This document shows, piece by piece, positions 22,666 to 47,923 of a stretch of 64,000 bases of DNA. Both the position numbers and the translations under genes were made by a program. The notes beneath the pieces were generated by a model. That model was given only the letters and a program-made list of their open reading frames with translations. It did no database searches and was not told the origin of the DNA. Source of the stretch: a virus (lineage: Duplodnaviria; Caudoviricetes). The stretch lies in the IMG/VR virus record IMGVR_UViG_2834917809_000007, positions 1-64,000 of that record; one strand, given 5' to 3'. Position 1 is the stretch's first letter; the number at the start of each line of letters is the position of its first letter.

Positions 22666-25600
22666 ATGAGTCAGACCGTTATCACCCAGGCCTTTGAGGC
22701 ACTGAAAGCGCAGGAAGCAGCCAACCACGGCGTGGTTACGCTGGATGAATTTGTTTTTGCCAGTGTGCCGAACCTGAACATTACCGATCCCATCAGCCGC
22801 ACCGAAACCCTGCCGCCCGCGGCGCAAATCGTGCACCGTCAGGCCGTCAGCAAGACGGGCATGGTGAACAGCAACGCCGTGGTGTATTCGGTAGTGCTGG
22901 GCGCGGACGTGGGCGATTTCGAATTTAACTGGGTAGGTCTGCTCAATAAAGCCAGCGGCGCGGTGGCCATGATTGTGCACGCACCGTCGCAGAAGAAAAT
23001 TAAGACCGCCTCCGGCCAGCAGGGAAACGTGTTAACCCGTTCCTTCCTGATGGAATACAACGGCGCGTCGACGCAGACGAATATCACCACGCCTGCTGAC
23101 ACCTGGCAGATTGATTTCACCGCGCGTCTGAATGGCGTGGATGAGCGTATCCGTCTTGAGAACATCGACACTTACGGCGCAGCCTCTTTCCTGAAAGACG
23201 GCTTTCTGGTGTCGGGTGCTAACGGTAACTATCAGGTTAAAAAGGGTGTTGCGTACATCGAAGGGTTGCGCGCTGAACTGCTGTTTGATCAGGCTGTGGC
23301 GGTTGCTAAAAGACCGTCAAAAATTTGGGTCGATGTTTGCTGGCGCGGAACGCTAACCAGCGTCTGGGCGACGGCTACTAAAATCACCGTGGCGGATACC
23401 CTGGCGAATTATGTTACCGGCGATGAGCAGCATTACGTTTTTGCTATCGCCAACATTCTCGCAGACGGTTCTGTTATTGATCTGCGTCAGGCGAGTGTGA
23501 TGGCTCAGGTTATGGGGTGGTCCGCAATGCCGGATACCGTTCCTTACTTTGACAAAGATTCGAAGCTCAAAACATCTGCGATAAGTGATTTTGGCCGCGA
23601 AATGCTCGCTGTTTCTGACGCTCAGGGTGCACTTTCAGGTCTTGGCCTTACTGACCCTGATCAGGGTGATACAGGAGTAAGCGTGCGGCAACCGTTTACT
23701 GGAGCCGTTGCGCGCACGCAGCATGATAAGAATGCTGAAGCAATTACTCCGCAGGATGCAGGTGCAAAAGGTGACGGTAAAGCTGATGACACTGCGGCAT
23801 TTGATGTGCTGGAAGCTGGCGTAACCGGTCAGTTAATTGATTTGGGTGGAAAAATTTATAACGTGGCGAAACCATATTATAAGAATCAATACACAAACGG
23901 TTCATTTGTCATTGACGGCTCACTGCACCCGGCCAGCTTCGATCTCAATGCGCTACGCTATAAGAAAATCTGCGCCACCTTCTACACTGGCGATGTCGAT
24001 ATCCCCGGGCAAACACCGATCTTCGACGGCGCTGCCGGGGTATTTCAGGCGTTCTGTCTCGTTCCGGCCAACGGGCAGGTGAAGATGTACGTCACCCAGC
24101 GCGCCACCGGCCCGCTGCCGTTTTTAGGTAACTTCCTCAAGAATGAGACTTACCGGATCGTCGAGTACACGTTCAAAGAAGATGGTTCGCAGATACTGTC
24201 CACGGCGTTCTCACAGCCACTGACCACATGCGGTCATGCGAACATGCTGGGGTATCGCTACGAAGGGAGTGAGCTGTATTTCTATACGGGCGCGCCTAAC
24301 GACTCGGAAACTGATACGACGCTTGGCGGCAAGGGCTTTACGCGCGTGCACTGGAAAGGTAGCGCCACAAGTGACTCTGACGTTACCCGCTATGAAATGT
24401 TTGATCAGCCGACCACTATAGGCGGCGTGTACAACACCCATTGCCGCACGAACGTTACCGTTTCCCCCGATGGCAAGTATCTGCTGCTGGTCACTGACGA
24501 TACCATGACCGGCGACCACGCGGCGCTGATTTACGACCTTGATACGGTGCTGGCATCAACGAATCTCAAATCGCTGGTTCCGTTACACGAATTCCGTGTG
24601 CCATCGTATTACAGCAGCCCACTGCAGGGCATTGCGATGAACGATAAGTACGTTTTCGTGTATTACGACTGGGAGGTAAACACATCCGCGCTAAAGATAT
24701 TCGACTTTGCGGGCAATCTGGTTTCGGACATCGACAACATCGATTTTCTGCGGACCGTTCATACCCGCGATGAGTATCTGGGTGGCTTCGGTGTGCTCAC
24801 GACTTTTGAGTCTGAGAACGTGACGCTGTTCGGTAATGATCTGTATGTCGGTTATCGGGAAATCTGGTACGAGATGGGCACCATCGTCAGCTACGATGGG
24901 AAATTCTATACCCCGCGCGCGGCCACCACAGGCAACCCACCGAACAACTCCGCATACTGGATGCCCGTTAATATCTCCACAGGTGCTGTGCCGTATTCTG
25001 CGACGGCGGCTTACACAGTTACCGGGGCGAAGAAAGCAAACCTGAAACGTGTAGTAAAGATTGGAGCACTGAAAGAAAGCAGCTCTGTGCCGATTCAAGG
25101 TCGGCCGGGCAATCCCACCGGGCCGAAGTTGCGAGATCCTAATCTACGTTACATCGCTAACTCAGGTTCATTTCAGTGGGAGCGCTGGGAAGAAAACACT
25201 AAACGGTTCCTGACTACGCTGCGCGTAAGTGAGGCCGGTAACTGGTATTTCCATGACTCATCTCCTGGTGCAGCAGTTACACCAGGAGTCATGCTGTCAT
25301 CACGAAGTAACGAAGTTGCTGGCGTGACCACTCGCTATGCACGTATTCGCGGTGGGGATAACTACGGCGGTAATACCTTCTGGTATGCCGCTGATGATTC
25401 AAATAAGCCGGGCTCGATTGTTGAATATGTAGGAGCAAATAACACCACGTCGCGCGAAACCAATCAGTATGGCGAGACGGTTATTAAATCGAATACTGAT
25501 GCCTCAAAGGTCCCGCTACGCGCTGATGTGCAAGGCACTGGGGACTTTATCCGCGGCTCACGCTATGACACGGTTTATTTCGGCATCCGCACATCGACCG

Positions 25601-26295
25601 TGAATACGATCATGACTTCGCGCAGCGGGAACTCGTTTATCTTAGGCGCGAGTTCATCAGTTGACGGGTTTACAAGCGACACCACTGCGCGCGTTAACAT
25701 CAATATCACCGACATGGCTTTCCGCCCAGACGCCGATAACAACCTCGACAACGGCAAGGTTAACTACCGATGGAAACAGCTTTTCGCGACTAACAGTTCC
25801 ATCGGTACGTCTGATGAAACCCACAAAACCAGACCGCGCAACATTGCCCTGGCGGAAGTTACAGCCTTCGCCGCCATCGCCCGCCTGCCGAGCGTGTGGC
25901 AATGGCTGAGTAAATACCAGGTTGAAGGTGATGATGCGCGACTCCACGCTGGGCCCACTGTACAGGCCGCTATCGCTATTATGGAAGCGAACGGACTAGA
26001 CTGGAGCCGTTACAGCGCGTTCTGCTATGACGAGTGGGAAAACCAGTACGAGCCGGTGCTGGCCCTGCGGAAGGTTGAAAAGGAGATCATGGTAGAGCGT
26101 GAGGGGTTCGAATACCCTGAATGGGTGGAAGTGGACGAAGAGTATGACACTGGCGAAAAAGTTCTGATTAAACCGGCCGGATCGGTCTATTCCTTCCGCA
26201 AGGAGGAATTGCTCTGGTGGTGTTTGCGAGCCATGGTAAGCCAGTTTGATGATCTGGACGCTCGTATGCTCCGTCTTGAAAGTGTGGCGGAGTAA
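22666..26295 (+). CDS. Tail fibre/spike receptor-binding protein with C-terminal intramolecular chaperone
   Basis: P2-type anchor (GDFEFNWVGL); GAKGDGKADDTAAF motif; beta-propeller-like core; TSDETHK...YSFRKEELL peptidase S74-like chaperone. Confidence 0.88.
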   Translation: MSQTVITQAFEALKAQEAANHGVVTLDEFVFASVPNLNITDPISRTETLPPAAQIVHRQAVSKTGMVNSNAVVYSVVLGADVGDFEFNWVGLLNKASGAVAMIVHAPSQKKIKTASGQQGNVLTRSFLMEYNGASTQTNITTPADTWQIDFTARLNGVDERIRLENIDTYGAASFLKDGFLVSGANGNYQVKKGVAYIEGLRAELLFDQAVAVAKRPSKIWVDVCWRGTLTSVWATATKITVADTLANYVTGDEQHYVFAIANILADGSVIDLRQASVMAQVMGWSAMPDTVPYFDKDSKLKTSAISDFGREMLAVSDAQGALSGLGLTDPDQGDTGVSVRQPFTGAVARTQHDKNAEAITPQDAGAKGDGKADDTAAFDVLEAGVTGQLIDLGGKIYNVAKPYYKNQYTNGSFVIDGSLHPASFDLNALRYKKICATFYTGDVDIPGQTPIFDGAAGVFQAFCLVPANGQVKMYVTQRATGPLPFLGNFLKNETYRIVEYTFKEDGSQILSTAFSQPLTTCGHANMLGYRYEGSELYFYTGAPNDSETDTTLGGKGFTRVHWKGSATSDSDVTRYEMFDQPTTIGGVYNTHCRTNVTVSPDGKYLLLVTDDTMTGDHAALIYDLDTVLASTNLKSLVPLHEFRVPSYYSSPLQGIAMNDKYVFVYYDWEVNTSALKIFDFAGNLVSDIDNIDFLRTVHTRDEYLGGFGVLTTFESENVTLFGNDLYVGYREIWYEMGTIVSYDGKFYTPRAATTGNPPNNSAYWMPVNISTGAVPYSATAAYTVTGAKKANLKRVVKIGALKESSSVPIQGRPGNPTGPKLRDPNLRYIANSGSFQWERWEENTKRFLTTLRVSEAGNWYFHDSSPGAAVTPGVMLSSRSNEVAGVTTRYARIRGGDNYGGNTFWYAADDSNKPGSIVEYVGANNTTSRETNQYGETVIKSNTDASKVPLRADVQGTGDFIRGSRYDTVYFGIRTSTVNTIMTSRSGNSFILGASSSVDGFTSDTTARVNINITDMAFRPDADNNLDNGKVNYRWKQLFATNSSIGTSDETHKTRPRNIALAEVTAFAAIARLPSVWQWLSKYQVEGDDARLHAGPTVQAAIAIMEANGLDWSRYSAFCYDEWENQYEPVLALRKVEKEIMVEREGFEYPEWVEVDEEYDTGEKVLIKPAGSVYSFRKEELLWWCLRAMVSQFDDLDARMLRLESVAE

Positions 26296-30148: not shown

Positions 30149-30174
30149 AATTGATTGATTCTATTGTGAAAATT

Positions 30175-30221
30175 TGGTGGCCCCTGCTGGACTTGAACCA
30201 GCGACCAAGCGATTATGAGTC
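30175..30221 (-). repeat. att site: 3' 47 nt of tRNA-Ile2(CAU), ileX type (fragment)
   Basis: Reverse complement GACTCATAATCGCTTGGTCGCTGGTTCAAGTCCAGCAGGGGCCACCA; no D arm or 5' acceptor strand upstream. Confidence 0.93.
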
Positions 30222-30347
30222 ATGGAATTGCCATGTTTCCACATGTTCTCCATTGTCGCTATTTGTATTATTTATTAATTAAAATCAGTGTGTTGCGATG
30301 TTTGTTTTGTTTCTGTTTGGCTACGGAGGTTCACCGTTGTACTATCC

Positions 30348-30393
30348 TTACCTGACCCATTACCTGACCCGAAATTGGCATTGGGTCAGGTAA
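30348..30393. repeat. Island integrase arm sites: two direct TTACCTGACCC plus one inverted copy
   Basis: 30348-58 and 30360-70 direct, 30383-93 inverted; same tandem at 47890-47912. Confidence 0.85.
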
Positions 30394-30418: not shown

Positions 30419-31735
30419 ATGGCCGCTAATCTTACCGAGACCGCTATACGTGGTTTGAAGACAAAGGACACTTCGTACTACGTATGGAGCAACAGTGCTC
30501 AACGTGGTACGGGCAGACTTGGCGTTAAGGTTCAGCCTTCTGGCAGCAAGGTGTTTTACTTCCGCTATTACGTTGATAAAGGAAAGAAAGAGAAATTCAT
30601 CCAGTTAGGCATCTGGCCTGAGATGAAGCTGGTGACAGCCAACGAGCTGGCGAAAAAGTATGGAGCCTGGCTTGTTGAAGGAAAAAATCCTCAGCAAGAG
30701 CTTGAGCAACAACGGCTGGCCGAACAACACCTCATGCAGCTCCATCGGTCTCAGGGATCGTTTGAAGAACTGGTGCATGGCTACGTTAACAAGATGAAGC
30801 TCGACAGCAAGCGAACCTGGGCTGATGTACTGAAGCGTCTTGAAAAAGAGTGTTACTCGATAATCCCTCGCGAAACTAAAGCGAAGGATGTGACGCCACT
30901 GCAGATCAAGACCATCCTCTCAGGTATTATCCAACGTGATGCGGTGGTCCATGCGAACCGAATTCGTTCATACCTGATGGCGGCATTTAACTACGGTCTG
31001 AAAGCCGATAACGATCCGATGAATACCAGCGTGGGTATTACGTTCGGTCTTGAGGTTAACCCAGTATCGGCCATACCGAAGCAGTCTTCGGCGGAAAAAG
31101 TGGGTGATACATGGTTAACGCTGGAACAGCTTCGTTTTGTCATGGAGCATTTCGCAGAGGCAACCAACGTTGGTCCGCTGATGCAACATTTAATCCGTTT
31201 CTGCGTGTATGCTGGTGGGCAGCGTCCGTTCGAAATGATTGCCAGCCGGTGGAGTGCGATTGACTGGCAGCAAAAAACACTGCTGGTTATTGCTGATGTA
31301 TCGAAAAACAAGCGTGAGCATCTGGTCCCACTTACGGAATCGGCGCTAGCAGAGTTGACCTTTGTAAAAGAGTTAATGAAGGAAAGTAGTAGTCCCTATA
31401 TCTTCCCACTCTCGACAGACGGAGAGCGGCCAGTACGTACTGATAGCCTGGCGCGGTCCATCATGTATTTCCGCGCGTTCAATCCGGAGTTTAAGGGTTT
31501 CACCGCTCGCGATTTGCGGCGCACCTGTAAGACTTTGATGGGGGAAGCAGGAATCAGCAAAGAGGTCCGTGACCGTATCCAGAATCATGCTTTGAATGAT
31601 GTCAGCTCGAAACACTATGATCGCTATGATTATCTGACTGAAAAGCGTAGAGCGCTTGAGATCTGGGAAGACATGATTAACAACTATCAGCGGCAGCAAG
31701 AAAACAACGTTGTGAACCTGTTTGGGCGGAAGTAG
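30419..31735 (+). CDS. int: Tyrosine integrase with N-terminal arm-binding domain (P4/island type)
   Basis: GRLGVKVQPSGSKVF.FRY; GQRPFE; RDLRRT..T.M...IQNH...HYDRYDY. Confidence 0.95.
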   Translation: MAANLTETAIRGLKTKDTSYYVWSNSAQRGTGRLGVKVQPSGSKVFYFRYYVDKGKKEKFIQLGIWPEMKLVTANELAKKYGAWLVEGKNPQQELEQQRLAEQHLMQLHRSQGSFEELVHGYVNKMKLDSKRTWADVLKRLEKECYSIIPRETKAKDVTPLQIKTILSGIIQRDAVVHANRIRSYLMAAFNYGLKADNDPMNTSVGITFGLEVNPVSAIPKQSSAEKVGDTWLTLEQLRFVMEHFAEATNVGPLMQHLIRFCVYAGGQRPFEMIASRWSAIDWQQKTLLVIADVSKNKREHLVPLTESALAELTFVKELMKESSSPYIFPLSTDGERPVRTDSLARSIMYFRAFNPEFKGFTARDLRRTCKTLMGEAGISKEVRDRIQNHALNDVSSKHYDRYDYLTEKRRALEIWEDMINNYQRQQENNVVNLFGRK

Positions 31736-31901: not shown

Positions 31902-32543
31902 CTATTTTTCTGGTAGCACGAACCGAACCTCAATGCGCCGCTGACGTGCATCTTCTGGCGCAACACCGGGAATAGGCTGTGAGTCACCGTATCCGGCAAC
32001 AATTACCCGACGTGCAAAAGCCGGAGCAAGATCGCCAACGATAAATTTACGCGCCTCTCTTGCACGAGCTGCCGATAAGGTAAAATTATCGTCATAGACA
32101 GTGCAGAAAACTTCAAAGTTCGTCACTGGACGGGTAACAGGAAGATTATCCGTATACCCTTCGATATAAACTTGTCCGCTTGTAAATTCGCTCAAAAATC
32201 TGACAACCTGTGTTTCAATCGTCGCTAATGCCTGACTTGCCTGAGATGCAATACATGCACTGCCACGGTTGAAAACCCCATCGCGCAACGTAATTTTTTG
32301 CGAGTTGACATCCAGCGCCACTAAGCCTTCATTCGCTGTCCCATCAAGGGTGTTTTTAATACTTCCCAACATCTCACCCACCCTGGCCCGCTGGGTATTG
32401 ATTCCCTGCTCCATTTCCTGCTTATGCTTAATATCCGACCATGTTTTCTGTAGTACCGACATCACCAGCAGCAACATTACTACAGCCATCACTCCTGACA
32501 TCAAGTCGGAGATCGAGACCCACTCATTAGGTTTATCTTTCAT
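31902..32543 (-). CDS. ZorB-like protein (TM helix + OmpA/MotB peptidoglycan-binding domain)
   Basis: WVSISDLMSGVMAVVMLLLV with membrane Asp; IEGYTD, N.TLSAARA, GYGDSQP, RRIEVRF. Confidence 0.85.
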   Translation of the reverse strand: MKDKPNEWVSISDLMSGVMAVVMLLLVMSVLQKTWSDIKHKQEMEQGINTQRARVGEMLGSIKNTLDGTANEGLVALDVNSQKITLRDGVFNRGSACIASQASQALATIETQVVRFLSEFTSGQVYIEGYTDNLPVTRPVTNFEVFCTVYDDNFTLSAARAREARKFIVGDLAPAFARRVIVAGYGDSQPIPGVAPEDARQRRIEVRFVLPEK

Positions 32544-32554
32544 AAGTGAGAGCC

Positions 32555-34507
32555 TCAGGCTGCATCATTAACAATGTTCATTGCCGATAGCGTTTGATCG
32601 ATATGTTTCAATGTCACAGTAAGTGGTGTCAGGCTTTGTTCAATTTGCTGAACGACCAGGTTCCGTTCCGGTGATGACAGCGTTGTACGAATCCCCTCCA
32701 GCTCTTTCAGAGAACGGTTCAATCTGTCATCGAGCGAAGAAAGTGCGGTTGATGCATCTGCATTACTCAGCATTTCATTACGCAATGATTCAATACTGTG
32801 CACCAGTTTACCAACGCCCGCAGTGATAATGTCCATTTTTGGTTGAAGAGGGCTCTCCTTCTGCATGAGCTGAAGTTGATTCACTAGCGCTTCAATAGCA
32901 TCTGCATTTCTTTCGCCTGATGTCGTCATTTCTGCATAACGGTTATTCAGACTAGCAACCTGTCGATTGCTGCTGGACACAGCGGTTAGACCGTTAACGA
33001 TTTGCTCGCGCAGGTCATCCACCAGTCTCGTCATAGCGATAACTTTTTCGTTCAAGGTTTCACTGGTGATCATAAATTCACGCTGTGCATCACGCTGAGT
33101 TTTCATCGATTGATCGATAGAAACTCGTACTTCACTCATTGTCGTGCCAACATTTTTAGACAGGTCGGTAACCGCGCTGGAAATGCCGTCCGTAGCGTTT
33201 GCCATACTTGCGGAAATCGATTCCATATTCTGGCTAAAACTTTCGCCCATCTGGGAGATGGTGGAACCAAGATCGGTTTTAACTGTGCCTAGCATGTCGG
33301 TAATGCCCGTACGGAAATCACCAATAACCTGTTGCAAATCACCTGCGGAATCACCCATTTCTTGTGCCGCCGATGACATTTTTTCGGCTGAATGTTGAAT
33401 GGCGGACAGGTTGCTACTGTTGGTATCAATAAAGTGTTGTAACGATTCTCGGGTGGTCGTTAACTCTGCTACCTGTTGTTGCCCTTGCACTGACTGATCT
33501 TCGGCTGCCTTAGCAATATCGTTTTGAATTTCATGTAAGAGATCTTGCAGTTTTACCAACTGCTTATTTTGGATAATACGCTGTTGTTCAGCGTCATCAC
33601 CCTGATCAGCAATCTTCATATAGAATGCGGCTATCTCTACATGCTGCGAATGGTTAGCCTGCCGGGAGTTTTCGCTTTCCTCACGAATATTGCTGCTTAG
33701 GTGTTGCAATCCCTCCATCTGTTGCTGTTGAGTGCTGCGGGATATATCAGCCAATTGCACCAGATGTGCTTCATGTAACTTGCTCTGCTGAGCAGCGGTT
33801 TTACCCTGATCAATCAAAGTTTGTAAAAACGACTCCATACCTGAAGAGAACTTGCTAAGTAACTGCCGTGTGGCTTCGCTTTCCACCTGCATTCTATCGT
33901 TCAAACCCTGTAATGCTGTCAGATACTGCAATTGGGTCTCTTCATGTTCAGCACGCTTTTGCTCTCGTGACTGGTCGAACACTTGTTTCATCTGCTGTGC
34001 GCACCAGCGCAAGCGCTTTTCGTCATATCCTAACCCAGCAGAACAGGCTTTAAGGATCAGATACGCCATGATCCCCCATGTGGACGTTTTAAATTTCGTC
34101 CCCAGCCCTTCCATCATCCCCATCAGATTCGACATGGCGTTATCCATGCCTGCTGAGTTAGCATCAATCAAAATATCCGATGCTTTATTAAGCGCAATTC
34201 CCAGACCGAGAAAGGTGCCTAGCAACCCTAAAATTAACAAAATGCCCGGCATAATGTCGGCCATTTTTTCTGCTGGACTGGCAACTGCTGCGCTGATTTC
34301 GTTGACTGAACCATGTTCAACATCGAGATGGTCTGCCCCATTATTCAGTGCATCACCTTGCCATTTTTTGTCCCAAAAGCGCTGATTTGCCTGCCAGAGC
34401 AATAAACCAATCGTCAGTAGAACCAAAAAAAGCATTGTGCCGCCAAACAGCATCTGTATGACGTCGAATTCCGGCAGTATAAAGGCAAAAAACTCGTGAA
34501 ACGTCAT
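32555..34507 (-). CDS. ZorA-like protein (MotA-like 3-TM channel + about 480-aa coiled-coil tail)
   Basis: PGILLILGLLGTFLGL and KFKTSTWGI motifs; heptad-rich tail; adjacent to ZorB-like gene. Confidence 0.82.
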   Translation of the reverse strand: MTFHEFFAFILPEFDVIQMLFGGTMLFLVLLTIGLLLWQANQRFWDKKWQGDALNNGADHLDVEHGSVNEISAAVASPAEKMADIMPGILLILGLLGTFLGLGIALNKASDILIDANSAGMDNAMSNLMGMMEGLGTKFKTSTWGIMAYLILKACSAGLGYDEKRLRWCAQQMKQVFDQSREQKRAEHEETQLQYLTALQGLNDRMQVESEATRQLLSKFSSGMESFLQTLIDQGKTAAQQSKLHEAHLVQLADISRSTQQQQMEGLQHLSSNIREESENSRQANHSQHVEIAAFYMKIADQGDDAEQQRIIQNKQLVKLQDLLHEIQNDIAKAAEDQSVQGQQQVAELTTTRESLQHFIDTNSSNLSAIQHSAEKMSSAAQEMGDSAGDLQQVIGDFRTGITDMLGTVKTDLGSTISQMGESFSQNMESISASMANATDGISSAVTDLSKNVGTTMSEVRVSIDQSMKTQRDAQREFMITSETLNEKVIAMTRLVDDLREQIVNGLTAVSSSNRQVASLNNRYAEMTTSGERNADAIEALVNQLQLMQKESPLQPKMDIITAGVGKLVHSIESLRNEMLSNADASTALSSLDDRLNRSLKELEGIRTTLSSPERNLVVQQIEQSLTPLTVTLKHIDQTLSAMNIVNDAA

Positions 34508-35775
34508 GCTGCCACCTCGACAAGCTGGCTTGCACGCGCGCGACTGGCTTTTTCAAAGATATTGGCAAAATCGATAATTAAACTTTGTTGCTCGGAATTA
34601 AGTTCTTCCCAATGCTTACCAAACTGAGCACACTCAATAATAATCATTCCAACCGCATTGCTGTCTTCCATCAAATATTCCTGACCTGCAAACGCCTCTG
34701 GTTCCTTTTCCAGCATTTGCAGAAACCCTTCAGCGGCAAAAACATAGTTACGCATTTCATTGGTGCGTTTGCGTTTTGCTTCCATCTCAGCCTGCTGCAC
34801 TGGTAAACGAGCTTCTAACTCATTGAGCATTGGTACTTCATCTTCCTGAAGATCACCAAGGCGCTGGCCAATCTGTAGACGTCGCAGGAGTACTTGCTCT
34901 TTGGACAGACCGTCATTCAGCGATTTCCATTCATTTTCCATATCCTGCAGGTTATACCCCCAGGCCATTATCATTTCTTCGAACACGAAGGGGATGAGTT
35001 TCTTACCAAAACGCGCCATCACAACGCGATCCAGGCGTTGCGTTGCGTCATCGCTCAACTGAGGGTTGGGCTTTAGCAATTCGTTCCCGGTTTCAATAAG
35101 AAACAGGTCGTCATCGGTGATCGTATCAATGTCCTGCGCACGCGTAAGATGTTGCTCAGTATCTTTTAATAACTTCTGCGACGCGCGTAACCGCAGATAA
35201 TGTTCGAAATCATTGATCTGAATATTATCCAGAACGTCCTTAATACGCGTTGAGAGTTGGGCATATAAGGTAATCAGACTCGCCAGGTCAACAGCACTCG
35301 CTGCTTCTCCGCGCATCTGATTACGTGCTTCGCGTAGTACTTGCTCATGCTCTTTGGCTTCATCCATTTCTTCTGGGGTAAGAAACAACTCTTTAAGTTG
35401 TTTGGCTTTATTAATTGCCCACTCAATGGCCTTACCAATACGTTTCGCCAGGTCACTCTTATCCCATTCGACCAGCAGCCCCAACGCTTTATCCAGCGCT
35501 TTCAAAGCACCACCCACCCACGGGAATTGTGGCAACATCTTTTCAGCTAATTTTGCTGCGTTTTGCACAATAGGGCGAATCACATTACTGATAAATGGCT
35601 TCACCTTTTCCCAGACGCTCTTTACGCTTCCAACAAAGGTCTCCGCTTTCTCTGCCATCCAGGAAACAGTTTTAGCTGCTGTTTCTTTAACACCGTCCCA
35701 TACCCGGCTGACTGTGCTTGTCACTGCACTTGCTACGCTGCTGCAAAAACTGCCGACACTTGACCAGAAACCCAT
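34504..35775 (-). CDS. Uncharacterised all-helical protein with N-terminal amphipathic segment
   Basis: MGFWSSVGSFCSSVAS...VWDGVKE..VSWMAE..VWEKVKPFI; stop overlaps ZorA-like start (ATGA). Confidence 0.85.
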   Translation of the reverse strand: MGFWSSVGSFCSSVASAVTSTVSRVWDGVKETAAKTVSWMAEKAETFVGSVKSVWEKVKPFISNVIRPIVQNAAKLAEKMLPQFPWVGGALKALDKALGLLVEWDKSDLAKRIGKAIEWAINKAKQLKELFLTPEEMDEAKEHEQVLREARNQMRGEAASAVDLASLITLYAQLSTRIKDVLDNIQINDFEHYLRLRASQKLLKDTEQHLTRAQDIDTITDDDLFLIETGNELLKPNPQLSDDATQRLDRVVMARFGKKLIPFVFEEMIMAWGYNLQDMENEWKSLNDGLSKEQVLLRRLQIGQRLGDLQEDEVPMLNELEARLPVQQAEMEAKRKRTNEMRNYVFAAEGFLQMLEKEPEAFAGQEYLMEDSNAVGMIIIECAQFGKHWEELNSEQQSLIIDFANIFEKASRARASQLVEVAA

Positions 35776-35793
35776 AATCTTCTCCTGTTGTTT

Positions 35794-36756
35794 TTATTGG
35801 ATACCTAATAATTTTTTTGCTGTGTTGACTTCACTGGCTGTACGTCCCGAATGATTGGCTACTGCTTGATGGGAGGCTAATACCTGTTCTATCGCACTCC
35901 GTAAGTGAGCGACGTTAAGTTGTGCAGCCTCTCCGGTGCGTTCCGCTTCTAGCAGCACTTTAGGCAGTGCCAGACGCATACAGGTACGGATCTCTCGTCC
36001 TGCCAGCCCTTCGGATAGTTCGCTTGCGGCGGTGAGAAGACTTTCTCTTTCTTCTGCGAGCGGTATTTCAGGGACCAGAAATTTGTTCCAGAGTTGGTAG
36101 CGTGCAGTCAGGTCAGGAAGCGTAAATTCAACGTGATAGCCAATGCGGCTGCGGAACGCCTCATCATAGTTACGTGCGAAATTAGTCGCGAAAACCACAA
36201 TGCCGTCAAAACGCTCCAACTCGATCAGTAACGTAGAGCGCATCGCATTAACTTCATTATCAACGCCTTGTGTGACAGAGGAGAGTCGTTTCCCCAGTAA
36301 CGTGTCAGCTTCATCGAAAAAGAGCAGTGCTCCGGTATCCTTAGCCTGCGCGAAAGCAGCCTGGATATTTTTTGCCGTTTCTCCCATAAACTTGCTTTCT
36401 AGTTCTGCAATACCAAGAGCAATAAAGGGCATCCGTAACTGTCCAGCCAGTGCCTCGGCGCAAAGCGTTTTCCCGGTGCCGGGGGGGCCATAAAAATTCA
36501 ATATCGCTGTCGATCCCATAGGGTCAACAACTGAAAAATTCCATTCCTGATAGATAGTTTTATGAAAACGCAGACGAGCCATACATTCATCAAGAGATGA
36601 TCGGGTGCTCTTGGACAAAATGACATCGTTATCGAGAGTAAATCTTGGATCTTTCAGTATATTTTTTTTTCCATCCTCGTCGCCATCTGACTGAGATAAC
36701 GACGGTCTTATCGGTGCCGAACCATTACTGTGTGTTGACATAAAATCGTCATCCAT
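35794..36756 (-). CDS. Single-domain classic-clade AAA+ ATPase
   Basis: GPPGTGKT, pore loop SKFMGET, LLFFDEAD, FATN, DEAFRSRI. Confidence 0.93.
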   Translation of the reverse strand: MDDDFMSTHSNGSAPIRPSLSQSDGDEDGKKNILKDPRFTLDNDVILSKSTRSSLDECMARLRFHKTIYQEWNFSVVDPMGSTAILNFYGPPGTGKTLCAEALAGQLRMPFIALGIAELESKFMGETAKNIQAAFAQAKDTGALLFFDEADTLLGKRLSSVTQGVDNEVNAMRSTLLIELERFDGIVVFATNFARNYDEAFRSRIGYHVEFTLPDLTARYQLWNKFLVPEIPLAEERESLLTAASELSEGLAGREIRTCMRLALPKVLLEAERTGEAAQLNVAHLRSAIEQVLASHQAVANHSGRTASEVNTAKKLLGIQ

Positions 36757-37269: not shown

Positions 37270-37719
37270 CTATGATTTATTGGGCTTAAACATGGTTGCA
37301 GTAAGGCGTGACAGTGAGCGTTTATCCACTTTGATCTGCAGTAATTCGTAATCATTTTGCATTTTCAACCAGTGCTCGGGCGTTCCGCCTAATACATAGC
37401 TGAGCCGGACGGCGGTTTCTGCTGTGATCCGCGAGCTGCCGTACACCAGATAATGACAGGCTGAAAGGCTCATGTTCATCGCTCTGGCGAAAGTGGTCAG
37501 TGTGATTTCATTCAGGGCAAGAATTCCTCTGATTCTTTCTGCCGGGACAGGGCTTTGCAGATTTTCATAGCCTTGCATCCAGCGAGAGCAGGAGCGTAGT
37601 GCTCTGCGCTTAGCCTGGCGGGCCCGTTCGTAGGCATAATCAGTTGGCATGAAGAGGGTTCCATTTACAAGCGTGTTCTGGTGCCCAGCCTGGTCATCAG
37701 AAATGAGGTTTTGCGCCAT
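37270..37719 (-). CDS. HigA-like XRE HTH protein (orphan)
   Basis: ITLTTFARAM...ITAETAVRLS..LG.TPEHWLKMQNDYEL; start may be 37650. Confidence 0.75.
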   Translation of the reverse strand: MAQNLISDDQAGHQNTLVNGTLFMPTDYAYERARQAKRRALRSCSRWMQGYENLQSPVPAERIRGILALNEITLTTFARAMNMSLSACHYLVYGSSRITAETAVRLSYVLGGTPEHWLKMQNDYELLQIKVDKRSLSRLTATMFKPNKS

Positions 37720-37902
37720 TCTAACCTATAATCGAGGCGTACAGGGTGTGGGTAAAGCGCTCATTCAGCCCACCGTTCATTTCTTTGTCCTGTATCGTTT
37801 GCGATAGACCTCTTAGCGGGTATTATTTTGCGCACTGCATTCCAAAATTGAATTTTTGCCTCTGCACATTTGCAGTATGGCTGCGATCTCCCCGAGGGTT
37901 TC

Positions 37903-40263
37903 ATGACTAACACTAACTTTTCTCAAACGGCTGCGTTTATCTGGTCGGTGGCTGATTTGCTGCGCGGTGATTTCAGACAGTCTCAGTACGGGCGCGTGAT
38001 CCTGCCCTTTACGCTGCTGCGTCGTCTTGAGTGCGTGTTGGCGGAGACCAAAGATGCGGTGGTGGCGAAATACGATGAATTAAAAACCAGCCCGCTGCCG
38101 GAAGATGCGAAAGAGAAGTTTCTGCTTCGCGCCAGCACATTTTCCTTCTTCAATACCTCGAAGATGGATCTGGGCAAGATGGGGCAGAACGACATCAAAG
38201 CCAACCTGGAAAGCTACGTACAGGCGTTTTCCCCGGACGCGCGTGAAATCTTCGAGCACTTCAAATTCAGCGAGTTTGTCGGCCTGCTGGAAGATGCCAA
38301 CCTGCTGTTCAAAGTGGTGAAGAAATTCGCCACCACCGATTTAAGCCCAAAAGCGATTTCCAACCATGATATGGGCCTGGTGTTTGAAGAGCTTATCCGT
38401 CGTTTTGCGGAAAGCTCCAACGATACTGCCGGTGAACACTTCACCCCACGTGATATCGTGCGCCTGACCACCTCGCTGGTGTTTATGGAAGATGATGAAG
38501 CCCTGACGCAGGACGGTATCATCCGCACCATTTATGATCCAACTGCCGGGACCGGCGGCTTCCTCTCTTCGGGCATGGAATATGTGCACGAGCTGAACCC
38601 TAACGCGGTCATGCGTGCCTTTGGCCAGGAGCTGAACCCGGAATCCTACGCTATCTGTAAAGCCGATATGCTGATCAAAGGTCAGGACGTCAGCCGCATT
38701 AAGCTGGGTAACACCCTCTCTAACGACCAGCTGCCACAGGACCAGTTCGACTACATGCTCTCTAACCCGCCGTTTGGCGTGGACTGGAAGAAGATTGAGG
38801 GCGAGATTAACGACGAACATACGCAGAAAGGCTTTAACGGTCGCTTTGGCCCGGGCCTGCCGCGTGTATCCGACGGCTCGCTGCTGTTCCTGATGCACTT
38901 GATCAGCAAAATGCGCGACAACCACAATGTGGATGGCAGCGTGAGCAACGGCGGGCGTATCGGGATTATCCTTAACGGTTCCCCACTGTTTACCGGTGGC
39001 GCTGGTAGCGGTGAGAGCGAAATCCGTCGCTACATTCTGGAAGCCGATTTGCTGGAAGGCATTGTCGCGCTGCCAACGGACATGTTCTACAACACCGGCA
39101 TTGCCACCTACGTCTGGATCCTCTCCAACAAGAAAGCGCCTGAGCGTAAAGGCAAAGTACAGCTGATTGATGGCACCAATCTGTGTGGAAAAATGCGTAA
39201 ATCGCTGGGTTCGAAGCGTAACCTGATGGGCGAAGACGATATCAAACTGATCACGCAGACCTTCGGTGACTTTGAGGTTGTGGATGCCACAACCCTCGAA
39301 GAACTGGGTCTGGAAAAAGCCGCCGAGCAAAAATCCAGCCGTGGCCGTCAGCCTGCAACCGCCAAAGCCGAAGCGCCGAAAACCTTCGCCAGTAAAATCT
39401 TTAACAGCACTGATTTTGGCTATCGCCGCCTGACCATTGAACGCCCACTGCGTTTATCTGCTCAAGTGACGGATGAGGCGATTGCGACTCTGCGCTTTGC
39501 GCCGAAGCCGTTTAATGTGCCGATGGAACGTCTGTATGAAGAGTTCGCAGCCCAATGGCAGGCGGGTAACTACGGTGATTTCTCCGAGCTGGATGCCGAT
39601 GCGCGCGCCATCATTAAAGCTGAATTTGCCGAGCTGAAAGAGAAGCAGATTAAAGATCTGCTCGACAGCAAACTGTGGCTGGCGCAGCGCGGATTGATGG
39701 AAAAGGCACAGCAGATTCAGACGGCTCTGGGTACGCAGACTGGTGGTAAAACGCGGGTAAGCAATGACTTCAATCAGTTCCAGCTGACCCTGAAAGGGGC
39801 CATCAAAACCGCTGGTGTGAAGCTGGATGCGAAAGAGAACAAGCAGTTTATCGATGCCATCACCACCAAAAACCCGGATGCCGAACCGGTGGTGAAGAAA
39901 GTGCTGAAAGAAGCCGCTCAGCCGCTGTACGGTGCGTTTGAATATAAAGGCAAGGTTGTTGAGTTTGAGCAGGACGGTGAGCTGCGTGATAACGAAAACG
40001 TACCGCTGAACCCAGCAGTCTCCACCAGCGACCTGATTGAAAACTATTTCGAGTCTGAAGTACTACCGCATGTGAATGACGCGTGGATCAACGCCGATAA
40101 GCGCGATGCGAAAGATGGCGAAGTAGGGATTGTCGGTTATGAGATCCCGTTTAACCGCCATTTCTATGTCTATCAGCCGCCGCGCCCGCTGGAAGAAATT
40201 GATGCAGATCTGGATGCGGTCAGCGCCGAGATTATGAAGCTGCTGCAGGAGGTTCATTCCTGA
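37903..40263 (+). CDS. hsdM: Type I R-M methyltransferase subunit
   Basis: [37 protein letters not shown]. Confidence 0.97.
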
Positions 40264-41645
40264 TGGCTAAGTATAAGGCGTATCCGGAGTATAAGGATTC
40301 TGGAGTTGAGTGGTTGGGGGAACTTCCAGCTCATTGGACAACGCTAGCAATAAAACATGTTGCTCAATTAAATCCTTCTAAATCATGCATTAGCATAGAA
40401 AAAATGAAAGGGATGTGTAGCTTTATTCCGATGGAAAAGCTCAAATTCAATTCCTTATGTTTAGATGAAATAAAAGATGTTACCGATGTATATAATGGAT
40501 ATACATATTTTGAAAATGAAGACATCCTAATTGCAAAAGTCACACCATGCTTCGAAAATAAAAACATGGTCGTTGCGCGTGATTTGAACAATGGCGTAGG
40601 ATTTGGTTCTTCTGAAATTTATGTTTTACGTTGCAATGATATTATAAACAATGATTTTTTATTTTATCGTCTTCAGGAAGATAGCTTCATGTTCATAGCT
40701 GAAGGTGCTATGACCGGTGCCGGTGGATTGAAGAGGGTACCTTCAGAAGTTCTAAATAATTTTAAATTTGGGCTTCCAAGTAAAAAAGAGCAATCAATAA
40801 TAGTAGATTTCCTCAAGCACGAAACCGCAAAAATCGACAACCTGATCGAGAAACAACAGCAACTGATTGAACTGCTGAAAGAAAAACGTCAGTCAGTGAT
40901 TAGCCATGCCGTCACCAAAGGGCTAAACCCTGATGTGCCGATGAAAGATTCCGGTGTTGAGTGGTTAGGGGAAGTGCCGGATCATTGGGAACTCGTACCA
41001 CTTAAATACTTGTGCAATTTTAGTGGGGGTGGGACTCCGACAAAAGATAACTTATCTTATTGGCAAGGGGGGACTGTTCCATGGGTTTCTCCGAAAGATA
41101 TGAAGTCTTTTTGGATTTCAGAAACTCAAGATTATGTTACACCAAAAGCAGTAAGTGAATCTTCAACAAACTATATTGAAGAAGGTTCATTGCTCATGGT
41201 AGTTCGTTCTGGAATTCTTCAGCGAAATATTCCTGTGGCTATAAATATCGTAAAGGTTACGATGAATCAGGATATGAAAGCGTTAAGATTTAATGAAAGA
41301 ATGAAGGCCCATTATGCAGCGTATTTTATCAACGGGAATGTCAATTCTTTGTTGTTAGAATGGACAAAAGAAGGGGCTACTGTCGAAAGCATTGAGCATG
41401 AGTATCTTGCAAATGGATTGATCCCTGTTCCACCGATAGATGAGCAACATTCGATAATTAAGAGCATCTCAGGCCAAATGATACGCTTTGAGTTATTGGA
41501 AGAAAAAGCATTAACAGGTATCCTACTTCTCCAGGAACGCCGCACCGCCCTTATCTCAGCCGCCGTCACCGGAAAAATCGACGTCCGCGACTGGGTTGCC
41601 CCTGACGCGCAGGATGTTGAGGCATCACAGGAGGCTACCGCATGA
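40263..41645 (+). CDS. hsdS: Type I R-M specificity subunit
   Basis: Repeated KDSGVEWLGE.P.HW conserved segments flanking two AT-rich TRDs. Confidence 0.96.
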   Translation: MAKYKAYPEYKDSGVEWLGELPAHWTTLAIKHVAQLNPSKSCISIEKMKGMCSFIPMEKLKFNSLCLDEIKDVTDVYNGYTYFENEDILIAKVTPCFENKNMVVARDLNNGVGFGSSEIYVLRCNDIINNDFLFYRLQEDSFMFIAEGAMTGAGGLKRVPSEVLNNFKFGLPSKKEQSIIVDFLKHETAKIDNLIEKQQQLIELLKEKRQSVISHAVTKGLNPDVPMKDSGVEWLGEVPDHWELVPLKYLCNFSGGGTPTKDNLSYWQGGTVPWVSPKDMKSFWISETQDYVTPKAVSESSTNYIEEGSLLMVVRSGILQRNIPVAINIVKVTMNQDMKALRFNERMKAHYAAYFINGNVNSLLLEWTKEGATVESIEHEYLANGLIPVPPIDEQHSIIKSISGQMIRFELLEEKALTGILLLQERRTALISAAVTGKIDVRDWVAPDAQDVEASQEATA

Positions 41646-44600
41646 GCATGGACAGCACCAAAGAGCTGATCTTCCAGAATGAGATGATTGCTCAGATGAT
41701 CGACCGAGGCTGGATTCTCGGCAAAACTGACGGCTACGATCGCGAACGTGCGCTGTACTCGCAGGATACGCTGACCTTTGTGCAGACCACGCAGCCGCAG
41801 GAGTGGGAGAAGTTTGCCAAAGTTTATCCTTCCAATACCGAGCGTCATTTCCTCGATGCGCTGGTGGCGCAGCTGAAAAAAGCGGATATCAATGCCACCG
41901 ATGTTTTGTCTCGCACTTACGGCACGCTCGGCGTACTGCGTCATGGCATAAAAAGCCATAATGCGCGTTTTTCGCTGTGTCAGTTTAAGCCGGAACATAG
42001 CCTCAACCCGGAAACCCTGACGCGCTACAAACAGAATATCTGCCGCATCGTGCCGGAGCTGGTTTACAGCCCGCATGCGTCGAACGCCGCATTTGAAGAA
42101 ACGGGCGTGAAGGCAAAGAAATGGCGTATCGACCTGGTGTTGTTCGTCAATGGCCTGCCGATAGCAACCCTCGAACTGAAGTCTGAATTTAAGCAGACGG
42201 TGCAAAACGCCATTACGCAATATAAGAAAACGCGTTTGCCGAAGGACCCTGGTACCAATAAACCCGAGCCGCTGCTGACCTTTAAACGCGGCACGCTGGT
42301 GCACTTTGCCGTCAGTCAGTACGAAGTGTTTATGGCGACCAAACTCGAGGGAGATAAAACCTTCTTCCTGCCGTTTAACAAAGGCACTCATGACGGTGGC
42401 GCAGGGAACGATATCCCGGAAGATGCCAACGACTACGCTACCAGCTACCTGTGGAATGAGGTGCTGCTGCCGGACAACCTGCTGAAAATTCTCGCCAGCT
42501 TCGTGCATCTGCAAATCGTCGAAAAAGAAAATGCCATTGGCCTGAAGTACAAAAGCGAGAGCCTGATTTTTCCGCGCTATCACCAGTGGGACGTGGTGAA
42601 CAAACTGATCACTGCCGCTACGATGGAAGGGACTGGCAATAAATACCTGATTCAGCATAGCGCCGGATCGGGCAAATCGAACTCTATCGCCTGGACGGCC
42701 CATCAGCTTTCCCGCCTGTATGATGAAAATGGCGAGAAGCAGTTCCATTCGGTAATTGTGGTGACGGACCGCACCGTGCTTGACGATCAGCTGCAGGACA
42801 CCATCTATCAGTTTGAACATCAGGATGGTGTGGTCGGGCGTATTAATAACAAAGAAGGAGAAGGTTCTAAATCGGACAAGCTGGCCTTCGCGCTGGAAAA
42901 TTCGCAGCCGATTATCATCGTCACCATCCAGACATTCCCGTTTGTCCTGAAGGCGATTGAAAACAGCGTCAGCCTCAAGCAGCGCAAATACGCGGTTATT
43001 GCCGATGAAGCGCACTCCTCCCAGAGCGGCTCTACGGCGCGTCAGCTGAAAGAAGTGCTGATGACCGAAGAGGTGGATGACGATGTGGAGATGTCTTCAG
43101 AAGATATTCTGGATGCCACCGTCGCCGCGCGTAAAGGCAGCAACAACCTGAACTATTACGCCTTTACCGCTACGCCGAAAGCCAAAACGCTGGAGCTGTT
43201 TGGCCGTCGTCCTAATCCGCAGGAACCCGCATCGAAAACGAACAAACCGGAAGCGTTCCACGTTTACTCCATGCGTCAGGCCATCGAAGAGGGCTTTATT
43301 CTTGATGTGCTGAAGAACTACACCAATTACAAGGTGGCGTATAAGCTGCTGCAAAAGCTGGACGATCCTGATCGGGAAGTGGACAGCAAGAAAGCGAAGA
43401 TCAAACTGAACCAGTGGGTCTCGCTGCACGATCATAATGTGTCGCAGAAAGTGAAGGTGATTGTTGAGCACTTCCGTAAGCATGTGATGCATTTACTGGC
43501 CGGCCAGGCGAAAGCGATGGTGGTGACCAGTTCGCGTAAAGCGGCGGTGCGCTACAAGCTGGCGTTCGATAAATACATCGCCGAGCACAAGTACGACAAG
43601 ATAAGTGCAATGGTGGCGTTCTCCGGGGAAGTGGAATTCAATGAAGATGACCACAACAGCCTTGCGCTGCTTCACCAGAAGTTCACCGAAATCAATATGA
43701 ACCCAGGCCTCAAAGGCCGGGATATGCGCAAAGCGTTTGATACCGACGACTACCAGGTGATGCTGGTGGCTAACAAATTCCAGACCGGCTTTGACCAGCC
43801 TAAGCTCTGTGCCATGTATGTGGATAAAAAGCTCGGCGGCGTGGAGTGCGTACAGACGTTGTCGCGCCTGAACCGGACATATCCTGGGAAGGCCCAGTCC
43901 GGCACCTTTGTGCTCGATTTCTACAACGAACCCGATGAGATTTTGGGTGCTTTCCAGCCGTACTACCAAACAGCAGAACTGACGGATGTTAGCGATCCGC
44001 AACAGGTCTTTGAACTGTTTGAAAAGCTGCGCACCAGCGGCATTTTCCTGTGGAACGAAGTGGAGCAGTTCTGCGAGGCGTTCTTCAGCAAAAACAAATC
44101 CAATGCGGCGATTAGCAATATCTGCAAACCTGCAGTGGAGCGCTGGAAGCATCGCTACACCTCAGCGATTGATGCCTATGTGCTGGCCAAAGAGATGTTT
44201 GAACGCACCAAAAAGACCGGCGATGTTGTGCTGATCACTAATGCGGAAAACACCTTCAAAGAGTGCGAAAAAGAAAAAAGTAAGCTGGATATCTTCAAGA
44301 AGGATCTCGGCAGCTTTGTCCGCTTTTACGAGTTCATGTCGCAAATCGTCGATTATGATGACAAGAACCTGGAAAAGCTGAGCCTGTTTGCTCGTCACTT
44401 GCGTCCGCTGCTGCATGAACAGCGTATCGAAGAAGACGAGATTGACTTAAGCAACGTCGAGATGAGCCATTACCGCTTGTCGAAGCTCCACGAGCAGCAT
44501 CTGAAGCTACAAGAAGATGCTGAAGACTACAAAATCAAACCGGGGAATGATGTTGGTACGGCAAAGCCGAAGGACAAGAAAGAAGAGTTTCTGTCGAATA

Positions 44601-44890
44601 TCCTGGCGCGTCTTAACGAGCTGTTCGTTACCGATAATCTGACCGATAAAGACATGATCAACTATGCCTTCGCGGTGCGTGACAAGCTGTCAGAAAACCA
44701 GGCGGTGATGACCCAGATTGCCAACAATACGCGTGAACAGGCGATGCTGGGCGATTTTCCGAAAGCCATTGATGATGCCGTGATGGACAGCAACGACGCC
44801 CAGCAGGAGATGATGGTGCAATACCTCTCTAACCCTGAACTGGCGAAGGGCTTTGCTCGTGTAGTGTTTGATATGTTGAAAGGGGCTTAA
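41642..44890 (+). CDS. hsdR: Type I R-M restriction subunit
   Basis: IDLVLFVNG...LELK nuclease; QHSAGSGKS, IADEAHSSQ, AFTATP, QTGFDQP. Confidence 0.97.
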   Translation: MSMDSTKELIFQNEMIAQMIDRGWILGKTDGYDRERALYSQDTLTFVQTTQPQEWEKFAKVYPSNTERHFLDALVAQLKKADINATDVLSRTYGTLGVLRHGIKSHNARFSLCQFKPEHSLNPETLTRYKQNICRIVPELVYSPHASNAAFEETGVKAKKWRIDLVLFVNGLPIATLELKSEFKQTVQNAITQYKKTRLPKDPGTNKPEPLLTFKRGTLVHFAVSQYEVFMATKLEGDKTFFLPFNKGTHDGGAGNDIPEDANDYATSYLWNEVLLPDNLLKILASFVHLQIVEKENAIGLKYKSESLIFPRYHQWDVVNKLITAATMEGTGNKYLIQHSAGSGKSNSIAWTAHQLSRLYDENGEKQFHSVIVVTDRTVLDDQLQDTIYQFEHQDGVVGRINNKEGEGSKSDKLAFALENSQPIIIVTIQTFPFVLKAIENSVSLKQRKYAVIADEAHSSQSGSTARQLKEVLMTEEVDDDVEMSSEDILDATVAARKGSNNLNYYAFTATPKAKTLELFGRRPNPQEPASKTNKPEAFHVYSMRQAIEEGFILDVLKNYTNYKVAYKLLQKLDDPDREVDSKKAKIKLNQWVSLHDHNVSQKVKVIVEHFRKHVMHLLAGQAKAMVVTSSRKAAVRYKLAFDKYIAEHKYDKISAMVAFSGEVEFNEDDHNSLALLHQKFTEINMNPGLKGRDMRKAFDTDDYQVMLVANKFQTGFDQPKLCAMYVDKKLGGVECVQTLSRLNRTYPGKAQSGTFVLDFYNEPDEILGAFQPYYQTAELTDVSDPQQVFELFEKLRTSGIFLWNEVEQFCEAFFSKNKSNAAISNICKPAVERWKHRYTSAIDAYVLAKEMFERTKKTGDVVLITNAENTFKECEKEKSKLDIFKKDLGSFVRFYEFMSQIVDYDDKNLEKLSLFARHLRPLLHEQRIEEDEIDLSNVEMSHYRLSKLHEQHLKLQEDAEDYKIKPGNDVGTAKPKDKKEEFLSNILARLNELFVTDNLTDKDMINYAFAVRDKLSENQAVMTQIANNTREQAMLGDFPKAIDDAVMDSNDAQQEMMVQYLSNPELAKGFARVVFDMLKGA

Positions 44891-46113: not shown

Positions 46114-46947
46114 TCAGTTAGTAACGTCGGAATCTTCATTCTCAGAATGACCCTTTCTCCAGCCCGCTGCAAATTCAGACGGTGTCTGATAATTCAGCGT
46201 GGAGTGCGGGCGGCATTCGTTATAATCCTGCCGCCAGTCATTAATAATTTTCCTAGCATGAACGATATCGCTGAACCAGTGCTCATTCAAACATTCATCG
46301 CGAAATCGTCCGTTAAAGCTCTCAATAAATCCGTTCTGCGTTGGCTTGCCCGGCTGGATTAAGCGCAACTCAACACCATGCTCAAAGGCCCATTGATCCA
46401 GTGCACGGCAAGTGAACTCCGGCCCCTGGTCAGTTCTTATCGTCGCCGGATAGCCTCGAAACAGTGCAATGCTGTCCAGAATACGCGTGACCTGAACGCC
46501 TGAAATCCCAAAGGCAACAGTGACCGTCAGGCATTCCTTTGTGAAATCATCGACGCAGGTAAGACACTTGATCCTGCGACCGGTGGAAAGTGCGTCCATG
46601 ACGAAATCCATCGACCAGGTCAGATTGGGCGCCGCCGGACGGAGCAGCGGCAGACGTTCTGTTGCCAGCCCTTTACGACGTCTTCTGCGTTTTACGCCCA
46701 GGCCACTGAGGTGATAAAGCCGGTACACGCGCTTATGATTAACATGAAGCCCTTCACGGCGCAGCAACTGCCAAATACGACGGTAGCCAAAACGCCTGCG
46801 CTCCAGTGCCAGCTCAGTGATGCGCCCTGATAAATGCGCATCAGCAGCCGGACGGTGAGCCTCATAGCGGCAGGTCGACAGGGATAAACCTGTAAGCCTG
46901 CAGGCACGACGTTGCGACAGACCGGTCGCATCACACATCAACATCAC
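46114..46947 (-). CDS. IS3 OrfB (DDE transposase domain)
   Basis: [27 protein letters not shown]. Confidence 0.95.
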
Positions 46948-46970
46948 GGCTTCCCGCTTCTGGTCTGTCG

Positions 46971-47912: not shown

Positions 47913-47923
47913 AAATTCGACGC

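Follow-up and report, generated by a model that had tools for sequence, protein, structure and literature searches.

To our knowledge, Zorya is the sole known defence system that employs a rotary motor resembling the flagellar stator. Type I consists of ZorA, ZorB, ZorC and ZorD and type II of ZorA, ZorB and ZorE; type III combines ZorA and ZorB with ZorF (DUF3348) and ZorG (DUF2894) (PMC8565338). The Zorya papers published up to 2025 give these three subtypes only (PMC8565338, PMC11890865). The features that define the ZorAB pair are an aspartate in a transmembrane (TM) segment, an A subunit with three TM segments and a tail, and a peptidoglycan-binding N/L/R motif (PMC11946911). The present study concerns a 64,000-nucleotide stretch of viral DNA (positions 1 to 64,000 of IMG/VR record IMGVR_UViG_2834917809_000007, here called the window), in which four co-oriented genes on the minus strand, at 31902-36756, encode an AAA+ ATPase, an all-helical protein, a ZorA-like A subunit and a ZorB-like B subunit. 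On balance, we take this 4.9-kilobase (kb) cassette to be a self-contained, horizontally mobile four-gene system that probably represents an undescribed Zorya-type anti-phage defence with a non-nuclease output, for which a mechanism is proposed below.

Gene 1 (35794-36756) encodes the ATPase, 320 amino acids (aa) in length, and is followed by gene 2 (34504-35775; 423 aa), gene 3, for the ZorA-like protein (32555-34507; 650 aa), and gene 4, for the ZorB-like protein (31902-32543; 213 aa). Eighteen base-pairs (bp) separate genes 1 and 2, the start of gene 3 overlaps the stop of gene 2 in a 4-bp ATGA, and 11 bp lie between genes 3 and 4; the open reading frame (ORF) coordinates thus agree with the layout described in an initial annotation of this DNA. 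The motifs listed there were also recovered, namely GLLGTFLGL and KFKTS in the 650-aa protein and SISDLM, which includes Asp13, in the 213-aa protein, as were the AAA domain of gene 1 (Pfam AAA, 3e-26), the OmpA domain of gene 4 (Pfam OmpA, 9.7e-9) and the long C-terminal tail of the gene 3 product, which is helical from about residue 161 to residue 650 in an AlphaFold2 (AF2) model. Comparison with copies in four other genera, whose proteins are 85-97% identical, gave ratios of nonsynonymous to synonymous substitution of 0.04-0.16 for all four ORFs. All four are genuine genes under purifying selection. A promoter scan of the window returned nothing above chance.

The four genes travel together. 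Every relative with a contig of sufficient length retains the order AAA, 423-aa protein, ZorA-like, ZorB-like, down to about 25% identity. This order was found in one E. coli chromosome (NZ_LR536430, whose copy is 91% identical to that in the window), in Citrobacter, [Erwinia] mediterraneensis, Escherichia sp., Rahnella, Buttiauxella and Dickeya, in Pseudomonas and Stutzerimonas, in one unverified phage scaffold, and on several metagenomic contigs where the gene 2 homologue is 25-31% identical or is recognised by profile at 1e-8 to 1e-19. Association of the two upstream genes with the zorAB-like pair in other genomes, which the initial annotation had named as a check, was seen in all relatives examined, as far as a profile E-value of 1e-8. 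Among the relatives found, no gene 2 homologue occurs in any other arrangement, save for a fusion to a TIR domain (P0245, see below). The linkage of the four genes is obligate, and this is the strongest result of the study.

The cassette is also rare. It was present in one of 5426 complete E. coli genomes, and in 6 of the 401 genomes sampled from the family around Citrobacter, and was absent from the 399 others of a class-wide sample; the samples of relatives were centred on a cassette-bearing Citrobacter genome, not on the window record. Single occurrences were recorded among 72,556 plasmid and 50,697 phage records. Canonical ZorA1 occurred in 4 of the 151 Enterobacterales genomes that were sampled, a rarity of the same order as that of the cassette. 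RefSeq (September 2026) annotates the E. coli copies as hypothetical, ATP-binding and OmpA/MotB proteins.

Library scans (PADLOC-DB dated 2023; NCBIfam release 20, June 2026) matched gene 3 to ZorA models only: PADLOC ZorA1 at 1.1e-11, NCBIfam ZorA_2 at 3e-8 and a second ZorA model at 8e-6. The score against NCBIfam ZorA_1 (24.5 bits) fails the cut-off of 190. No MotA, TolQ or ExbB model in PADLOC or NCBIfam was matched, and Pfam MotA_ExbB does not detect the protein. The AF2 model places TM1 at about residues 16-39, TM2 at 78-116 and TM3 at 121-159, followed by one long helix of about 490 aa; hydropathy supports only TM1 and TM2 (13-41 and 82-109), TM3 falling under the threshold. To separate ZorA, MotA, TolQ and ExbB, of which the structure search program Foldseek ranks ZorA, TolQ and ExbB alike, a hidden Markov model (HMM) was built from the first 175 residues of the gene 3 family and scored on control proteins taken from genomes. 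The ZorA1 controls were found with PADLOC ZorA1, NCBIfam ZorA_1 being a poor probe in Enterobacterales, with weak matches. This family-core HMM gave 17-32 bits with ZorA1, 16 with a ZorA2-like protein and 4.7 (E 0.1) with MotA, and nothing with TolQ or ExbB. On these scores, gene 3 is placed in the ZorA branch of the MotA/ExbB-type proteins.

Conservation of the gene 3 product is concentrated in the TM core and in the mid-tail, at about residues 352-515, with fast-evolving stretches at 180-350 and 530-650. Homologues range in total length from 512 to 746 aa. Among them are four Pseudomonas proteins (P0331, P0313, P0316 and P0343) of 621, 635, 649 and 677 aa. Tail length in Pseudomonas varies by 14-residue tandem repeats at one proximal-tail site (about residues 280-350 in the numbering of the window protein). 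The repeated unit resembles xxLQxLxQEQQAGN. These repeats could constitute a natural tail-length ruler.

Gene 4 matches PADLOC ZorB1 at 1.3e-17, and at 4.8e-17 over its full length. The protein has one TM segment (residues 8-36), within which Asp13 is invariant in 10 homologues, and its OmpA-type peptidoglycan-binding domain carries a GYTD motif and the triad N153/L156/R160, both conserved across the family. The triad is spaced as are N152/L155/R159 of E. coli ZorB, and two cysteines are present in all 10 aligned homologues. An HMM of the gene 4 family aligned with ZorB (encoded beside ZorA1) over positions 3-216, TM segment included, at 47-63 bits; with MotB it aligned the OmpA part alone, and at the control loci it gave no alignment with TolR or ExbD. 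By sequence, gene 4 is classed as ZorB-like, not MotB-like. The gene 3 and gene 4 products together have all the sequence features needed for a peptidoglycan-anchored, ion-driven motor, and the finding that ZorA and ZorB were the only motor families matched in PADLOC and NCBIfam favours a motor of Zorya type.

The resemblance to Zorya extends beyond these scores. As in Zorya types I to III, the A gene is immediately followed by the B gene; the A subunit has three TM segments and a helical tail of about 500 residues; the B subunit combines the TM aspartate, an OmpA-type domain with the N/L/R motif and conserved cysteines; and the pair is accompanied by extra soluble partners in mobile defence islands of rare and patchy spread. 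In contrast to Zorya, both subunits score far below the curated family cut-offs, the cytoplasmic domain next to the membrane has about half the length, and the accessory genes, for an AAA+ unfoldase and a novel helical protein, lie upstream of zorAB and not downstream. The 5:2 motors TolQR-TolA and ExbBD-TonB share a three-TM A subunit with a GLLGT-type TM2, and Foldseek ranks TolQ and ExbB beside ZorA; however, the cassette B subunit is of OmpA type and lacks the TolR/ExbD fold, a tail of 490 aa extends the A subunit, the family HMMs are blind to TolQ, ExbB, TolR and ExbD, and the cassette has no TolA- or TonB-like partner. The MotAB stator differs in that gene 3 has no Pfam MotA_ExbB match and three TM segments in its model, against four in MotA.

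Scanning the four proteins with PADLOC and Pfam revealed no ZorC (EH domain), ZorD (helicase-nuclease), ZorE (HNH), ZorF or ZorG. No DNA-targeting domain was found in the cassette proteins, the flanking genes being those for an integrase and for restriction-modification (R-M). Because the ZorA thresholds are failed and the subtype-defining accessory proteins are absent, the cassette falls outside Zorya types I-III. The initial annotation had proposed that an AAA+ ATPase and a helical protein take the place of the known accessories, and the lack of any ZorC, ZorD, ZorE, ZorF or ZorG match agrees with this; it erred in assigning ZorC, ZorF and ZorG to type III, which has no ZorC (PMC8565338). 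PADLOC, Pfam and NCBIfam assign the locus to no described subtype, returning only weak matches to ZorA, ZorB and IetA. This result and the conserved four-gene linkage support the suggestion, made in the same annotation, of a distinct Zorya-related system.

The gene 1 product is a single-domain ATPase whose nearest solved relatives, by search of Protein Data Bank (PDB) sequences, are VCP/Cdc48 (1e-34). Walker A (GPPGTGKT), Walker B (FFDEAD), the pore loop (KFMG), sensor 1 (ATNF) and the arginines of FRSR are invariant, or almost invariant, across 12 homologues. These motifs identify the protein as a predicted AAA+ unfoldase of the classic clade (Cdc48/FtsH/PAN type) with intact threading features. 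It is the best-kept component of the cassette, remaining 51-59% identical where the other three proteins drop to 20-30%. A C-terminal motif, TAKKLLGI (window 35794-35820), is largely kept in AAA homologues that are as little as 48% identical, although the most distant carry substitutions. By analogy with the C-terminal motifs of proteasomal ATPases, it might be a partner-docking peptide.

Among defence proteins, the nearest relative of gene 1 is IetA (PADLOC, 9.6e-30), the antitoxin-like ATPase of IetAS, a system originally described as a plasmid-stabilising toxin-antitoxin (PMC13069673). The likeness is that of a single-ring classic AAA protein beside a possibly toxic partner. Unlike IetAS, the cassette lacks the subtilisin-like protease IetS, its ATPase scores 98.1 bits against the NCBIfam IteA_antiphage model, whose equivalog cut-off is 510, and it sits in a motor operon. 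No protease domain was found in the cassette proteins with PADLOC, Pfam or NCBIfam. Because the protease is absent and the ATPase is under the cut-off, the cassette is not IetAS. The text of a paper on domain-centric discovery that covers IetAS variants (PMC13069673), and that of its preprint, make no mention of Zorya or of the four-gene operon, and no description of the cassette was found in the open-access full-text literature or in the libraries scanned.

No match to the 423-aa protein emerged from Pfam, PADLOC, NCBIfam or the PDB sequences. When 1.84 billion proteins were searched exhaustively by profile, the family amounted to 153 representative clusters, nearly all of about 420 aa and stand-alone. 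The AF2 model (from a 23-sequence alignment) is all-helical, with a predicted local distance difference test score (pLDDT) of 75; the N-terminal 50 residues or so are poorly defined and a domain at about residues 130-420 is confident. Conservation is strong in this C-terminal, globular helical domain. The N-terminal portion of about 105 residues is amphipathic and has low model confidence; amphipathicity is moderate over residues 10-125, and a hydropathy scan detects no TM segment. Structural searches (Foldseek against PDB, VIA-align against PDB, ESM Atlas and BFVD) returned only generic helical hairpins and coiled coils or members of the family itself; an ESM Atlas feature search gave no usable match. 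Inspection by eye revealed no HEPN (Rx4-6H), HExxH or HD motif. Two candidate readings were tried and rejected: a TolA/TonB-like N-terminal TM anchor, by the hydropathy scan, and a relation to ZorF or ZorG, rejected at the sequence level by PADLOC and by a scan of 23 family members at a lax threshold, in which nothing appeared consistently and neither DUF3348 nor DUF2894 was matched even at E 5.

A clue to the role of the 423-aa protein comes from a search of the whole library with the family profile. P0245, a distant relative of 558 aa encoded on a 4.4-kb metagenomic contig (Logan ERR4592245), begins with a TIR domain (7e-15) and continues with a region homologous to the C-domain of the 423-aa protein, residues 167-416 (hmmsearch, 1.7e-9). 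Profile-to-profile alignment of P0245 with the C-domain (hhalign) gave a probability of 96.6% and an E-value of 5.7e-10, the motifs RFGK and AAEG being retained. The TIR domain is a classic effector. A second TIR protein adjoins P0245, and the short contig shows neither an AAA gene nor a motor gene. Because it is fused to a TIR domain and lies beside another TIR protein, the C-domain of the 423-aa protein is tied to immunity. The fusion, a single instance and to be weighed as such, suggests that gene 2 is modular, with an N-terminal part that would be a swappable effector.

The genomic setting points the same way. The window is part of an 85-kb IMG/VR provirus record that holds a P2/HP1-like prophage, a 17.8-kb integrase island containing the cassette, and a second prophage in tandem. 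Beyond the cassette, the island carries a type I R-M system (hsdM, hsdS and hsdR; 37870-44890, plus strand; Pfam N6_Mtase/HsdM_N, Methylase_S and HSDR_N/ResIII/T1R_D3), the neighbour that the initial annotation had reported. Elsewhere, the neighbours of the cassette include GmrSD and TOTE modules, on islands of P4-like type; in Stutzerimonas, RecD/UvrD-PDDEXK genes and a second AAA/WYL system lie nearby; in other copies it adjoins DarT/Macro and CbtA (Dickeya) or dynamin-like GTPases. Taken together, the defence-island context and the TIR fusion of the gene 2 C-domain support an immune role.

The ends of the island are direct repeats corresponding to the attachment (att) sites, identified by alignment to the intact tRNA(CAT) at the end of a homologous island. 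The left repeat (30172-30221) is 50 nucleotides (nt) long and equals the 3′ part of a tRNA(CAT) gene; the right repeat (47968-48017) is 98% identical to it and doubles as the left boundary of the prophage that follows. Near record position 82,704 (L057:18704-18728) there is a third copy, and all three are copies of about 48 nt of the tRNA(CAT) 3′ end. The prophage, the defence island and the second prophage share one att site as a tandem array. No intact tRNA gene was found in the window (ARAGORN, Rfam) or in the rest of the 85-kb record; the term "tRNA island" used in the initial annotation is thus a minor slip, the island being bounded by repeats derived from a tRNA (anticodon CAT). A second repeat pair (30344-30373 and 47886-47915) is found near the att copies, in a different order.

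A tyrosine integrase gene (30419-31735, plus strand; Pfam Arm-DNA-bind_3, Phage_int_M and Phage_integrase) is convergent with gene 4, and the same integrase, at 92-95% identity, adjoins the cassette in E. coli, Citrobacter, Erwinia and Rahnella. The island has a G+C content of about 46% and the neighbouring prophage one of 57-60%. A gene separating the cassette from hsdM encodes a 149-aa helix-turn-helix protein of the HigA family (37270-37719, minus strand), with no HigB-like partner ORF seen; because it is absent in the Buttiauxella copy, where hsdM abuts the cassette, it is outside the conserved module. Near the right end of the island is an IS3-family transposase gene (46114-47004, minus strand), with a programmed frameshift element of IS1222 type (Rfam RF00383, 157 bits). 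In Stutzerimonas (L028-L030, at about 600-5100 and 7885-8952 in locus coordinates), a gene for a WYL/WCX regulator is located 28 bp upstream of the cassette AAA gene, and a few kb away is a pair encoding a 700-aa double-AAA (Cdc48-like) protein and a WYL protein; this pair may be a further candidate defence system. The prophage in the window encodes a 1209-aa tail fibre (22666-26295, plus strand) with a tail-collar N-terminus, an N-terminal extension of endosialidase type, a five-bladed beta-propeller receptor-binding platform and a C-terminal S74 intramolecular chaperone.

We infer that the cassette protects against phage, and propose a mechanism modelled on that of Zorya I (PMC11946911). The ZorA-like and ZorB-like proteins would assemble into a ZorA5B2-like motor driven by ions, anchored in peptidoglycan and extending a helical tail of about 70 nm into the cytoplasm. 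Envelope damage at the site of phage entry would cause the B subunit to engage the wall; ions would then flow by way of the Asp13 site, and the A ring and tail would rotate and signal to the two soluble proteins. Of these, the 423-aa protein would be an effector-adaptor, whose C-terminal domain takes the signal and whose amphipathic N-terminal portion (about 105 residues) acts upon the membrane. The IetA-like ATPase would restrain or reset it, in the fashion of an antitoxin, until the motor fires. The infected cell would in consequence be arrested, or its membrane damaged locally. The parts given here to the 423-aa protein and to the ATPase are suggested by the TIR fusion, by the amphipathic N-terminus and by the antitoxin-like character of IetA (PMC13069673).

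Several observations weigh against this scheme. For the motor, the match of gene 3 to NCBIfam ZorA_2 (33.1 bits) fails the cut-off of 100, and the PADLOC ZorA match is confined mainly to TM2-TM3 (profile positions 121-200 of 699). With the gene 3 model as query, Foldseek put TolQ, ZorA (8vvn, 8qyd) and ExbB together on top and did not separate the families; the cytoplasmic domain between TM1 and TM2 spans about 40 residues, where E. coli ZorA has about 80. For the effector, the 423-aa protein lacks a TM segment and is no more than moderately amphipathic at its N-terminus, the searches made found no catalytic motif or known fold in it, and the TIR fusion comes from a single metagenomic contig. 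The sequence leaves either soluble protein as the candidate effector.

This last point bears directly on a version of the scheme with the roles reversed, in which the AAA+ unfoldase is the effector, recruited to the activated tail so as to unfold or extract ejected phage proteins, or phage factors for replication or assembly, at the site of entry, and the 423-aa protein is an adaptor only. We consider it unlikely but live. Its strengths are that the ATPase is the most conserved component and has kept its substrate-threading pore loop, that the 423-aa protein shows neither a catalytic motif nor a known effector fold, and that the ATGA overlap couples the latter translationally to the ZorA-like gene. 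The sole fusion on record, however, joins the C-domain to a TIR domain, as would fit a protein that carries an effector, and ATPases of the IetA type are described as antitoxin-like, not as effectors (PMC13069673); neither point is decisive.

Defence might also be the wrong context altogether. The four genes could be a maintenance or addiction module of a mobile element, or an envelope-energising device serving an island or satellite, built from a borrowed Zorya/Tol-like motor and a toxin-antitoxin-like pair. The first description of IetAS as a plasmid-stabilising system (PMC13069673) lends itself to this interpretation, as do the location of all Enterobacterales copies on integrase islands, some with P4-like AlpA/DUF3987 genes, and the lack of a recognisable phage-sensing domain. 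Yet the Pseudomonas cassette has no adjacent integrase, the near-absence of the cassette from plasmids is at odds with such a role, its neighbours are typical of defence loci, including the WYL regulator directly upstream in Stutzerimonas, and the TIR fusion points to immunity. An addiction role is thus rather improbable, and less likely than the reversal of roles considered above. That the cassette is an already named system, a Zorya subtype or another catalogued defence missed by the libraries and literature searched, appears very improbable: although PADLOC-DB dates from 2023 and the literature search was limited to open-access papers, the 423-aa protein is unmatched in PADLOC and in the NCBIfam release of 2026, RefSeq gives the E. 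coli copies only generic names, the Zorya papers list three subtypes, and the full-text literature search was negative.

Returning to the Zorya-type reading, the cassette is a natural variant that would keep the same chassis but replace the DNA-binding and nuclease partners by an unfoldase and a novel helical protein, and it offers an independent test of the model in which the motor senses and the tail signals. The variant may bring to light an output other than a nuclease, for instance remodelling of proteins or attack on the membrane, and its small size and presence in E. coli and close relatives make direct cloning possible. An orphan family of about 150 clusters, that of gene 2, gains a context and a link to TIR through the fusion. 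A bolder proposal, which we advance tentatively and hold at somewhat less than even chances, is that the cassette typifies a fourth architectural class of Zorya-type immunity. In this class the motor and tail would control protein remodelling and not DNA cleavage, with a threading AAA+ protein and a helical adaptor-effector as the output, the adaptor C-domain would be an unrecognised immune module able to carry TIR, and tail length would be set by 14-residue units. If this is true, ZorAB-type motors would be a general sensor of envelope breach that can be wired to unrelated effectors.

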